From Pseudomonadota bacterium (GTDB lineage: Bacteria; Pseudomonadota; Gammaproteobacteria; Acidiferrobacterales; Acidiferrobacteraceae), in contig JAJYGP010000063.1 of NCBI GenBank assembly GCA_021785035.1, positions 17,254 to 81,253 of the forward strand: 64,000 bases of DNA, written 5' to 3'. A model generated the notes under the pieces. The model saw nothing but the letters and a program-made list of their open reading frames with translations. It did not search any database and was not told where the DNA came from. Made by a program: the position numbers and the translations under genes. Below are positions 42,112-45,036 of the stretch, one piece after another. Position 1 is the stretch's first letter; each line of letters starts with the position of its first letter.

Positions 42112-42236
42112 AGACGTACGTTCGTACCTTACCGGATACTTCTGTGAGCTTGCCTTTTATAGTAGTTGAGTTAGCGCCATACGCCAGTCCCCGACGGAGA
42201 GTCATGAGGATTGACTTGACCTTCTTGATTCACTAT

Positions 42237-42253
42237 CTTAGACTAATTCTAAG
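42237..42253. promoter_or_regulatory. 6-5-6 palindrome CTTAGA-ctaat-TCTAAG over the candidate promoter of the rubrerythrin operon
   Basis: Read directly, 25 nt upstream of ATG 42278. TTGACT/TTGACC (42211-42221) lie 17 nt upstream of TATCTT/TAGACT, so the palindrome overlaps the putative -10. Confidence 0.4.
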
Positions 42254-42277
42254 TTAAACCCAAGCACGGAGTATAGT

Positions 42278-42697
42278 ATGAACCTGAAAGGCACTAAAAC
42301 CCATGACAATCTCAAGGCCGCCTTTGCCGGTGAGTCCCAGGCCAACCGCCGTTACCTCTATTTCGCCGCAAAGGCGGACATAGAGGGTTTCAATGACGTC
42401 TCCGCGGTCTTCCGCTCCACCGCCGAAGGGGAAACGGGCCACGCCCACGGTCATCTCGAGTACTTAGAGGCGGTAGGTGATCCTGCCACCGACCTGCCGA
42501 TCGGCAGCACCGCCAATAACTTGAAGGCGGCCATCGCCGGCGAGACCCATGAGTATACTGATATGTACCCGGGTATGGCGAAGTCGGCACGCTCCGAGGG
42601 CTTTGCGGAGATCGCCGACTGGTTTGAGACCTTGGCCAAGGCCGAGCGTTCACATGCCAACCGGTTCCAAAAGGCGCTCGACAGCCTAGGAAAGTAA
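42278..42697 (+). CDS. rbr: Rubrerythrin-family diiron protein (short form, no rubredoxin domain)
   Basis: 139 aa. [29 protein letters not shown]... plus two ExxH diiron motifs (EGETGH, ETHEY/ERSH). No C-terminal CxxC pairs. Confidence 0.88.
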
Positions 42698-42765
42698 GTT
42701 CTTAGATATGATGCGTGAGGATGCGCGGGTCGGCTTTGCCGGCCCGCCTTCTTTTTGGAGGGAGT

Positions 42766-44112
42766 ATGGAGCAAGATAACGGGAAGTCAGTTATGCGCGA
42801 AGGGAACCTCGAGGCTCCGACGCGGCACGCCATCTCTTGGCAGGATCCCGCCTATTTCGATGCGACGGCGATCAATGCTGAACTTTTTCGCGTTTTCGAC
42901 ATCTGCCACGGTTGCCGACGGTGCTTTAACCTCTGTCAGTCGTTTCCGACCCTCTTCGATTTGATTGATAACTCCTCAGGAATGGAGGTGAAGGACGTCT
43001 CGCCTAGCGATTACAGCCGGGTAGTAGACCAGTGCTACCTCTGCGACATGTGCTATATGACGAAGTGCCCTTATGTTCCGCCCCATCCCTGGAACGTCGA
43101 TTTCCCGCACCTCATGTTGCGGGCGAAGGCCGCCAAATTTCGCGACGGCAAGACTCGTTTCCGGGATCGTGTGCTCGCAAGTACGGATGCGGTCGGACGC
43201 TTGGCGGGAATACCGGTTGTCACTGACATCGTCAACGCCGCCAATCGCAATGGCGTTGCGCGCAAGGTCCTAGAGACCGTCCTTGGCGTAGATCACCGGG
43301 CCCATATTCCGAGCTACCACAGCAAAACTTTTCGGAAGGGGTGGCGGTCCCAGGATATCGAACCCGTGACGACGCCGGGCACGACGGGGCGCGTCGCATT
43401 GTTCGCGACATGCTACGGTAACTACAATGAACCCGAGCTCGCAGCGGATTTGGCGAAGGTTTTTTACCACAATGGGATCTCAGTGCGCGTGTTGGACGAG
43501 GAGCGCTGTTGCGGTATGCCGAGACTAGAAGTCGGCGATCTAGACGGCGTGGCCGCCTTAAAGGAGTTCAATATTCCACGGCTTGCGGCGCTCGTGGATG
43601 AGGGTTACGACATCATCGCACCAGTCCCGTCTTGCGTCTTAATGTTTAAGCAGGAATTGCCCTTGCTCTTTCCCGATGACGAGCGTGTCGCGAAGGTAAG
43701 GAAGGCCATGTTTGATCCGTTTGACTACCTGCTTTTGCGCCATAAGGGCGGTCAGATGAGGACGGACTTCAAAAATCCCTTGGGCAAGGTCGCCTATCAC
43801 GTCCCTTGTCATCAACGGGTACAAAATATCGGCTTGAAGACCCGCGATCTCTTGATGATGGTACCGGGTACTACCATAGAGGTGATTGAGCGCTGCTCGG
43901 GCCATGATGGGACTTACGGCGTTAAGCGCGAGTTCTATGAAGACGCGGTCAAGATCGGGCGCCCCGTTGTAAAACGCATCCAGGATGCGGCCCCTGATCA
44001 TTTCATGAGCGATTGTCCCATCGCCGGGCATCACTTGGCGAACGGCATGAGCGGAGGTAGCGCGCCGATATCGCGATACGCGCTTTTGCGTCGGGCCTAC
44101 GGCATTGAGTGA
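42766..44112 (+). CDS. (Fe-S)-binding oxidoreductase, HdrD/GlpC-like with CCG domains
   Basis: Two ferredoxin-type clusters ([11 protein letters not shown]; [13 protein letters not shown]) followed by Cys-rich CCG-type repeats (...ATCYGNY...ERCCGMP...; ...VPCH...CSGHDGTYG). Start moved to ATG 42766 behind GGAGGG. Confidence 0.8.
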
Positions 44113-44139
44113 TCTCATTCCATAAAAGGAGAATGTCTT

Positions 44140-44445
44140 ATGGCGCATGAAGGCATGCATGAGGACCGGTCGGAATTGACAGACGCCACTCGCGAGATGC
44201 ATAGGGCAATTGTCTCGCTTATGGAAGAGCTGGAAGCGATCGATTGGTACCAGCAGCGGGTAGACGCCTGCCGGGATCCGGAGTTGCGCGCGGTTCTCGC
44301 GCATAACCGCGACGAAGAAAAAGAGCATGCGGCTATGACCCTTGAATGGATACGCCGCCACGATTCCGTGTTCGACCACGAATTGCGCGAGTATCTCTTT
44401 CGGGAGGGAAGCATCGTCGGCAAGGAACATGAAAACAAGGCTTAA
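44140..44445 (+). CDS. EncFtn-type (encapsulin-associated) ferritin-like protein, without C-terminal targeting extension
   Basis: 101 aa behind AAAGGAGA. Core ...HRAIVSLMEELEAIDWYQQRVDACRDPELRAVLAHNRDEEKEHAAMTLEWIRRHD... matches, from memory, the Rhodospirillum rubrum EncFtn core almost block for block. Confidence 0.75.
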   Translation: MAHEGMHEDRSELTDATREMHRAIVSLMEELEAIDWYQQRVDACRDPELRAVLAHNRDEEKEHAAMTLEWIRRHDSVFDHELREYLFREGSIVGKEHENKA

Positions 44446-44454
44446 GGAGACCCT

Positions 44455-45036
44455 ATGAAAGCACTTCAGCGTCGCGATCTCTTATCCCTTGAAGACTACG
44501 CGCAAAAACGAGCGGAGTTTCGGGCCTGTGTCCTCGCCCACAAGCGTCACCGTCAGGTTGGCATCGGGGAGCACGGGCGCTTGTATTTTGAGGATCGGTT
44601 GACGGTCCAGTACCAGGTCCAGGAGATGCTGCGTATAGAGAAGATTTTTGAAGGGCCCGAGATTGAGGAGGAGCTCAAGGCTTACAACCCGCTGATCCCC
44701 GACGGCCATAACTGGAAGGCGACCTTTATGCTGGAGTATGAGGATGTTGAGGAGCGGCGCAAGGCTTTGGCGAGCTTGCACGGTGTGGCCGATAAGGTGT
44801 GGGTCCAGGTCGGCGCCAAAGCCCGGGTATGGGCGATTGCCGATGAGGATATGGGGCGGGAGAATGCCGATAAAACCTCGTCTGTGCATTTCCTGCGCTT
44901 CGATCTGACGCCGGATATAGTGACCGACGCGAAAGGCGGGGCTGCTATTACCTGCGGGATCGATCACCCTGCCTACCGCCACCAAACGGTGCTTGATGAT
45001 GGTACCCGCGCCTCCTTGGCGGCTGATCTCAGCTGA
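44455..45036 (+). CDS. DUF3501-family protein
   Basis: 193 aa behind AAGGAGA. Recognised by similarity to DUF3501 proteins that accompany rubrerythrin and HdrD-like genes in other proteobacteria. No known motif. Confidence 0.6.

Follow-up and report, generated by a model that had tools for sequence, protein, structure and literature searches.

The reduction of H2O2 at a di-iron site is established for the rubrerythrin (Rbr) family, though not for the partners of the lineage considered here. This lineage, the aerobic-type rubrerythrins, was defined by Cardenas, Quatrini and Holmes, 2016, who named the system made up of RBR, RFO and DUF3501 and reported the co-occurrence of all three in 185 genomes (PMC5114695). 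They also noted fusions of RFO with DUF3501 in Nitrosomonas, and had already proposed RFO as the electron donor that substitutes for the rubredoxin domain these rubrerythrins have lost (PMC5114695). The system was later described as a "three-component system" and found in protist mitochondria (Gray et al., 2020; PMC7050145), and in a 2025 preprint on the Rbr of B. pseudomallei the operon partners are still hypothetical electron donors. A 2024 review describes a class of short ferritin-like proteins related to encapsulated ferritin (EncFtn), the s-FLPs, with NE0167 as archetype; they are short, lack a targeting peptide, and are of unknown function and encapsulation status (PMC11202242). Here we analysed a stretch of 64,000 nt from contig JAJYGP010000063.1 (GCA_021785035.1; positions 17,254–81,253, forward strand), hereafter the window, in which an s-FLP gene is embedded in an aerobic-type rubrerythrin cluster. 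The cluster is a variant of the already described system, and the basic picture of the trio is unchanged by it. An earlier reading of this DNA from its letters alone (the sequence-only reading) had called the trio recurring but uncharacterised; recurring it is, but it had not gone unnoticed, having been described together with the donor hypothesis in PMC5114695. That no partner relationship had been demonstrated experimentally, as the same reading stated, still holds, with the 2025 preprint giving a hypothesis only.

All four genes were found on the + strand in an open reading frame (ORF) read-out, in the order rbr (42278–42697), RFO (42766–44112), s-FLP (44140–44445) and DUF3501 (44455–45036). 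The first encodes an aerobic-type, sulerythrin-like rubrerythrin of 139 aa (PF02915, E = 5.8e-30), the second a GlpC/HdrD-like CCG Fe-S protein (PF02754 matched twice, E = 4.5e-15), the third a short EncFtn-like ferritin-like protein of 101 aa (PF22277, E = 1.6e-41), and the fourth a DUF3501 protein of 193 aa with an orphan fold (PF12007, E = 1.1e-69). What defines an aerobic-type rubrerythrin system is present in full, namely a rubredoxin-less Rbr, an adjacent CCG-domain RFO and an adjacent DUF3501 (PF12007). The genes are separated by gaps of 68, 27 and 9 nt, and Shine-Dalgarno (SD) sequences stand ahead of RFO (GGAGG), s-FLP and DUF3501 (AAGGAG in both cases), with a weaker ACGGAG ahead of rbr. 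The four gene identities, the spacings and the SD sites had been read correctly from the sequence alone, and with the Pfam matches added we regard the identities of the components as near certain.

The s-FLP had been called an EncFtn-type ferritin, which is right for its core and its ferroxidase residues; the targeting peptide and a nearby encapsulin are absent, and it belongs to the s-FLP class instead. Its best PDB match is 3K6C (NE0167; E = 6e-37), R. rubrum EncFtn (5DA5) is matched at E = 1.7e-34, and it scores 131.8 bits against a cutoff of 125 with NCBIfam TIGR04535 (encapsulin-associated ferritin-like protein). The residues of the ferroxidase centre are kept, with E30, E60, H63 and Y37 aligning with Glu32, Glu62, His65 and Tyr39 of the R. 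rubrum protein. The C-terminus, ...FREGSIVGKEHENKA, stops about five residues into the linker of longer homologues; these are 125–135 aa in length, run on through a Gly/Ala linker to ...LGSLRG (also LIGSLR, GIGSLRG and LGSLRGGR), and share 76–80% core identity with the window protein; against close homologues that carry a targeting peptide its core identity is about 70–80%. In the one long homologue (125 aa) whose context was examined, a Linocin_M18 encapsulin gene lies directly downstream. Held against the features of an encapsulated ferritin, the s-FLP has the fold and the ferroxidase residues, and lacks both the linker with its targeting peptide (SLGIGSLK-like) and an adjacent PF04454 shell gene. 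A phmmer search at E <= 10, with the T. maritima encapsulin sequence, validated against 3DKT, as the query, turned up no encapsulin in the 64-kb window and none in 95 DUF3501/s-FLP loci (1.05 Mb). With its 101 aa, EncFtn core and no apparent targeting peptide, the protein fits the s-FLP class, and by analogy it probably forms a decamer like 3K6C, whose entry holds 10 chains and is described as a decamer. The tail ...EHxxK of the 101-aa forms was considered as a docking peptide and rejected as evidence, since the same stretch opens the linker of the targeting-peptide homologues. On a neighbour-joining tree the Acidiferrobacter s-FLPs lie nearer to the targeting-peptide forms and the other cluster s-FLPs group with stand-alone s-FLPs, a pattern that allows no conclusion on a distinct clade of cluster s-FLPs because it rests on ~90 aligned positions and has no support values.

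The embedding of s-FLP in this cluster recurs elsewhere. A DUF3501 alignment of 14 sequences, run against one genome per GTDB species, gave 597 confirmed loci, and the best 80 of these, from different GTDB species and with DUF3501 proteins 56–71% identical to that of the window, were analysed (individual loci are given L numbers below). The genes rbr, RFO and DUF3501 stand together in this order in almost all of the 80. An s-FLP gene adjoins DUF3501 in 14 of them, a figure that is biased, the 80 loci being the best tblastn matches to the window DUF3501. The usual site is between RFO and DUF3501, with gaps of ~9–40 nt in most loci; an alternative site follows DUF3501 (L009, L025), and one Thiohalomonadaceae genome has the order rbr-RFO-DUF3501-sFLP-oxyR-like. 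The four-gene order of the window is found in five further lineages, two of them with quite different flanks (xseB-ispA-dxs), and it stands behind different flanking genes in L004 and L095. When mapped on a DUF3501 neighbour-joining tree, s-FLP is present in 21 of 87 taxa, with at least 13 state changes (gains or losses). With the same order elsewhere and 14 of 80 loci having s-FLP beside DUF3501, the insertion is not unique to this genome, and it is uniqueness that the sequence-only reading had named as telling against its module; judged from these gene orders, the s-FLP linkage is recurrent but optional.

Stand-alone s-FLP genes are found beside an RND pump (NE0167), after pst-phoU (T. violascens), and next to a flavin reductase or an ATPase fragment. 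NE0167 has no known function (PMC11202242) and is the only s-FLP with a solved structure. Its gene (L098/L099, 6001–6288) overlaps the end of an RND pump gene of an OEP-MFP-ACR_tran operon by 11 nt, which suggests that it is co-transcribed with the pump and not with rubrerythrin. An RND pump operon also lies a few kb upstream of the stand-alone s-FLP gene in L011. In the Burkholderiales locus L007 (5112–6527), s-FLP follows a gene whose 268-aa product corresponds to ATP synthase alpha/beta in no more than the N-terminal barrel and the first part of the nucleotide-binding domain, and a 71-aa ORF without a family match lies downstream.

Ahead of rbr, a candidate sigma-70-type promoter on the + strand (42216–42244) consists of TTGACC (42216–42221), a 17-nt spacer and TAGACT (42239–42244), and scores 9 of 12 consensus positions in a consensus scan. 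The candidate promoter that the sequence-only reading had put forward is present, but taken alone its hexamers do no better than chance. TTGAC and TAGACT are kept in A. thiooxydans and in L013. The palindrome CTTAGA-ctaat-TCTAAG, which the same reading had placed over the -10 hexamer, was recovered in that position by an inverted-repeat search; as a 17-bp operator candidate without strand (42237–42253, CTTAGAC-TAA-TTCTAAG) it covers TAGACT. Its core is invariant in five relatives in which the flanks have diverged, and the palindrome is kept even where its outermost pair differs, since this pair has changed on both sides (C..G in the window, T..A in A. thiooxydans). The pattern TAGA-N5-TCTA occurs only once in the 64-kb window. 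In 62 non-redundant gamma- and beta-proteobacterial loci it is found <=180 nt upstream of rbr in 33, or 3.05 per kb, against 4 occurrences in the remaining 788 kb of those loci (0.005 per kb), which is an enrichment of ~600-fold. The consensus of 36 sites is aaTTTAGA(C/A)TnA(G/T)TCTAAAt, and outside the search pattern a T at -1 (36/36) and an A at +13 (34/36) are also kept. A match of at least 5/6 to TTGACA lies within 34 nt upstream of the box in 18 of the 36 box-carrying promoters. By these measures the operator is very likely real.

The box resembles the iron control element (ICE) of Irr, with the consensus TTTAGAA-N3-TTCTAAA, which has been reported only from alpha-proteobacteria (Rodionov et al., 2006; PMC1698941). 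Rubrerythrin-like genes are among the minimal Irr regulons that were predicted for R. rubrum and Magnetospirillum (PMC1698941). The window sequence, cTTAGAc-TAA-TTCTAAg, agrees with the ICE at 11 of 14 positions, and perfect boxes occur in L016, L031 and L035. An Irr-like gene adjoins the cluster in L030 (1892–2470), scoring 136.5 bits with IrrA, 70 with PerR and 43 with Fur, and in L096 (6001–10700) another lies ~1.7 kb from the cluster, beyond a LysR gene, in a locus whose rbr promoter has two tandem ICE-like boxes (10638–10668). Irr-like relatives are present in Gammaproteobacteria, Burkholderiales, Thiobacillaceae and Ectothiorhodospira, and Irr-type paralogues had earlier been predicted in Acidithiobacilli (PMC2631029). 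Ten loci have an oxyR-like LysR gene directly upstream of rbr (L019, L021, L026, L034, L043, L057, L065, L066, L081 and L087), for which the best NCBIfam model is OxyR, with 270 bits in L034. Box and gene exclude each other across the loci, with the box only in 34, oxyR only in 10, neither in 18 and both in none (Fisher p = 1.2e-4), a distribution that fits the two being alternative forms of stress or iron regulation of the same system. Regulators of the PerR, Fur or OxyR type had been named as candidates in the sequence-only reading; the operator in the window instead resembles the Irr element, and OxyR is seemingly the alternative in other lineages. Another conserved element between pilB and rbr is the 8-mer ATAGTAGT (42159–42166), which all six aligned relatives, among them the distant L014, share without change in surroundings that diverge, and which may serve rbr or the divergent pilB as a second regulatory site. 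A search of Rfam gave no match at E <= 0.1 in the leader or in the rbr-RFO spacer.

A stem-loop resembling an intrinsic terminator lies between rbr and RFO (42725–42757, + strand; GCGGGTCGGC-ttt-GCCGGCCCGC then CTTCTTTTTG), and had been overlooked in the sequence-only reading. A terminator scan places it 28 nt 3' of the rbr stop, with 10 pairs of which 9 are G-C, followed by the T-run CTTCTTTTTG. Five relatives retain the stem between flanks that have diverged. For the best hairpin of the rbr-RFO spacer, the median free energy (dG) over 65 loci is -18.5 kcal/mol, compared with -10.4 and -10.8 kcal/mol in controls of coding sequence of the same length, and 60% of the spacers reach dG <= -15 against 20–22% of the controls (p = 2e-5 and 2e-4). 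The hairpin is probably an attenuator or a transcript stabiliser that makes Rbr exceed its partners, and with such a structure after rbr the four genes are probably not expressed equally.

In Rbr, the PF02915 match spans residues 10–133 of the 139 aa and so leaves no room for a rubredoxin domain, in agreement with the sequence-only reading, which had described a rubrerythrin lacking it. The closest structures are those of B. pseudomallei Rbr (9ONM/4DI0, E ~1e-72) and sulerythrin (1J30, E = 8e-52), and as far as sequence can tell the di-iron residues are intact. The ORF that contains RFO extends from 42715 to 44112, and alignment with the starts in five relatives puts the true start at the ATG at 42766, giving 448 aa. 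Its best NCBIfam model is GlpC, with 244 bits against a cutoff of 278, and a second GlpC model gives 170 bits against 280; it falls below both cutoffs, and it lies among rbr, s-FLP and DUF3501 and not beside glpAB or hdrE, which sets it outside GlpC/HdrD proper. A score below the cutoff would be expected of a sister family. Two 4Fe-4S Cys motifs can be read from the translation, and no homologue of solved structure was found for RFO by sequence. DUF3501 matches the crystal structure 3FJV (E = 1.6e-54). Its AlphaFold model (pLDDT 91.4) retrieved only 3FJV from the PDB with Foldseek (TM 0.91), the next-best matches having TM <= 0.33, and with no structural neighbour beyond its own family structure the fold gives no functional lead. 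The residues Y15, R19, R33, E46, T50, E57, H171 and D191 are nearly invariant, and DUF3501 has no conserved cysteine. In two proteobacterial metagenome-assembled genomes, rbr adjoins DUF3501 with no RFO between them (L087, 6518–7579; L089, 6585–7579). A two-gene form of rbr and DUF3501 was reported for Thermoproteales by Cardenas et al. (PMC5114695).

The source organism is Acidiferrobacter-like. The gene order in A. thiooxydans (L001), coaE-pilD-pilB followed by rbr-RFO-sFLP-DUF3501-parE-parC, is the same as in the window, and the four proteins are 96% (Rbr), 85% (s-FLP), 78% (RFO) and 70% (DUF3501) identical to their counterparts there; by these identities their evolutionary rates are very unequal. 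Downstream, the stop of DUF3501 overlaps the start of parE (TGATG, 45034–45038), with parE at 45036–46928 and parC at 46925–49135, and a scan of the window showed no terminator-like site 3' of DUF3501. With the overlap and no such site, transcription of the stress operon may run on into the topoisomerase IV genes. A. thiooxydans and L093 have the overlap too, and parE lies downstream of the cluster in ~20, and parC in ~18, of ~80 loci. PADLOC gave no matches to an anti-phage defence system.

In the explanation that we favour, a Fur-family, Irr-like repressor encoded elsewhere would bind the ICE-like box and silence the cluster when iron or haem is scarce; going by Irr biology, abundant iron or the presence of peroxide would make it leave the promoter. 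The stem-loop would end part of the transcripts, leaving Rbr in excess over RFO, s-FLP and DUF3501, and read-through would continue into parE-parC. Rbr would reduce H2O2 at its di-iron site, and RFO would pass electrons to it via two [4Fe-4S] clusters and two CCG domains, thereby replacing the rubredoxin domain; a quinol or a thiol is suggested as the donor to RFO itself. DUF3501 would be an adaptor between RFO and Rbr, a role suggested by its having the tightest link to Rbr and by its fusion to RFO in Nitrosomonas. The s-FLP would oxidise cytosolic Fe(II) without a shell and so remove the Fenton partner of peroxide, which would suit an iron-oxidising acidophile, and it would be an accessory gene, repeatedly gained and lost, and not a core subunit. 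We have moderate confidence in the picture as a whole, that is, in a trio with an optional s-FLP, Irr-like control and an attenuating stem-loop. The role of s-FLP is its weakest step, and a combined unit of peroxide reduction and Fe(II) detoxification, as the sequence-only reading had suggested, is plausible.

Several observations weigh against this explanation. Five of six clusters are without s-FLP, the share that do have one carries the bias noted above, and the trees are neighbour-joining trees without support values. The promoter hexamers alone are found at chance level (3 sites against 2.0 expected). The 64-kb window yielded no gene of the Fur family and none that is OxyR-like, so for this genome the regulator has to be inferred, and the Irr-like proteins of other loci fall under the NCBIfam equivalog cutoffs (136.5 vs 150). 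DUF3501 has no cofactor motif, and its fold is an orphan. Finally, s-FLPs that are 70–80% identical to that of the window stand alone in unrelated contexts, and no ICE box was found ahead of the stand-alone genes in L007, L011, L098 and L100, so that the co-location of s-FLP with the trio may reflect shared regulation only.

This last point is also the core of a rival account, in which s-FLP is an independent iron or oxidative-stress protein that lands repeatedly in the operon for the sake of shared regulation, with no physical or catalytic coupling to the other three. The stand-alone homologues (72–87% identical) speak for it, as do the clusters that lack s-FLP, the patchy distribution on the DUF3501 tree and the variable position within the cluster. 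The insertion, however, is mostly inside the operon, with short gaps and an SD sequence of its own, where it would be counterselected if it disturbed a coupling, and recruitment on at least two independent occasions, to two positions, argues for selection for co-expression with the rubrerythrin system in particular. This account differs from the favoured explanation solely on physical coupling. We regard it as a genuine possibility, although a somewhat unlikely one; a working partnership and co-regulation alone cannot be told apart on these data. At the opposite end, s-FLP could be a dedicated partner, a shell-less EncFtn-type decamer whose di-iron site RFO would reduce again, DUF3501 serving as adaptor, or which loads or repairs the di-iron site of Rbr. 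Together the four proteins would in that case act as a cytosolic machine, drawing on Fe(II) and on respiratory or thiol electrons to consume H2O2. We consider this speculative and improbable; if true, s-FLPs would for the first time have a function, and an encapsulin cargo would have been re-used outside the shell. A genuine encapsulated ferritin, with its shell gene elsewhere and a C-terminal binding sequence that went unrecognised, is very improbable indeed. It would be in keeping with the TIGR04535 score above cutoff, with the core identity to targeting-peptide homologues and with the view that s-FLPs in theory could be encapsulated (PMC11202242), but the protein has neither a ...LGSLR-type peptide nor a Gly/Ala linker, the encapsulin search of the window and the 95 loci came back empty, and the 125-aa homologue has its shell gene immediately downstream.

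On the side of expression, the favoured explanation has one operon under an Irr-like repressor, and each half of this has a rival. The cluster might comprise two transcription units, with rbr monocistronic and ended by the stem-loop, and RFO-sFLP-DUF3501, possibly together with parE-parC, read from an internal promoter. A strong terminator-like hairpin with a T-run right after rbr, conserved and general across loci, is what such an arrangement would call for, and the overlap of DUF3501 with parE, with no terminator after it, would fit the larger second unit. Yet the hairpin ends only 19 nt ahead of the start of RFO, too close for a promoter to fit in between; there is no promoter-like + strand site between 42245 and 42766; the T-run is interrupted (CTTCTTTTTG), as is typical of leaky terminators; and the order rbr-RFO-DUF3501 is almost universal. 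We hold two units to be rather unlikely. As for the repressor, the palindrome might be bound by a protein outside the Fur family, or act as an RNA or DNA structure, with the likeness to an Irr box coincidental. Most loci have no adjoining regulator gene, and Rodionov et al., 2006 found no Irr or ICE outside the alpha-proteobacteria (PMC1698941), both of which would favour this. Against it stand the 17-bp consensus, which fits the ICE at 12–14 of 14 specified positions, with three loci (L016, L031 and L035) perfect, and the 7-1-7/7-3-7 architecture, which is typical of Fur-family boxes. Irr-like genes are present in Gammaproteobacteria, Burkholderiales and Thiobacillaceae, in two cases beside the cluster or ~1.7 kb from it (L030, L096), and the likely transcription start falls downstream of the box, which is thus probably not transcribed. 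A different regulator appears doubtful to us. The same evidence allows for an Irr-type ICE regulation that extends well beyond the alpha-proteobacteria, with rubrerythrin as its core target.

The recurrent embedding of s-FLP in the aerobic-type rubrerythrin operon is the first clue from genomic context to this class of protein, and it turns the question of s-FLP function into a testable one, of ferroxidase or peroxide chemistry beside Rbr, RFO and DUF3501. For the rubrerythrin system itself, which aerobes widely possess and some mitochondria as well, the loci suggest two likely regulatory inputs that are mutually exclusive (the Irr-like box or an adjacent oxyR-like gene) and a likely device for setting the expression ratio, the stem-loop after rbr. 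The ICE-like boxes point to Irr-type regulation outside the alpha-proteobacteria as well.

Compared with known systems, the window cluster would share with classical rubrerythrin (D. vulgaris, 1RYT/1B71) and with sulerythrin (S. tokodaii, 1J30) the peroxidase chemistry of a di-iron four-helix bundle, and its Rbr matches sulerythrin and B. pseudomallei Rbr over the full length. Classical rubrerythrin takes up electrons through a C-terminal rubredoxin domain, whereas in the window this role is assigned, by inference, to separate proteins. With the system of Cardenas et al. it has in common all three components, their order rbr-RFO-DUF3501, the rubredoxin-less Rbr, the CCG domains and Fe-S motifs of RFO, and the donor hypothesis; it differs in the s-FLP gene between RFO and DUF3501. 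Neither encapsulin nor EncFtn occurs anywhere in PMC5114695, where a figure has only unnamed "HYP" genes, and the operator and the stem-loop after rbr are not described there. The s-FLP belongs to the same two-helix fold family as the EncFtn of family 1 encapsulins (R. rubrum Rru_A0973, 5DA5) and has the same ferroxidase residues, but it lacks the linker, the targeting peptide and the adjacent shell gene, and is embedded in a peroxidase operon. NE0167 of N. europaea is closer: it is its closest PDB match, of similar size (95–101 aa) and likewise without a targeting peptide. The NE0167 gene, in contrast, directly follows an RND efflux pump gene, with no rubrerythrin cluster, and the tail of the window protein (...GSIVGKEHENKA) is slightly longer and resembles the start of the linker in the targeting-peptide forms. 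The likeness to the Irr/ICE regulon, finally, lies in the operator consensus, in the rubrerythrin target and in a site over the -10 that fits repression, and the differences lie in the hosts, which are Gamma- and Betaproteobacteria (groups in which PMC1698941 reported neither Irr nor ICE), and in position 7, which is more often C/G than A/T.

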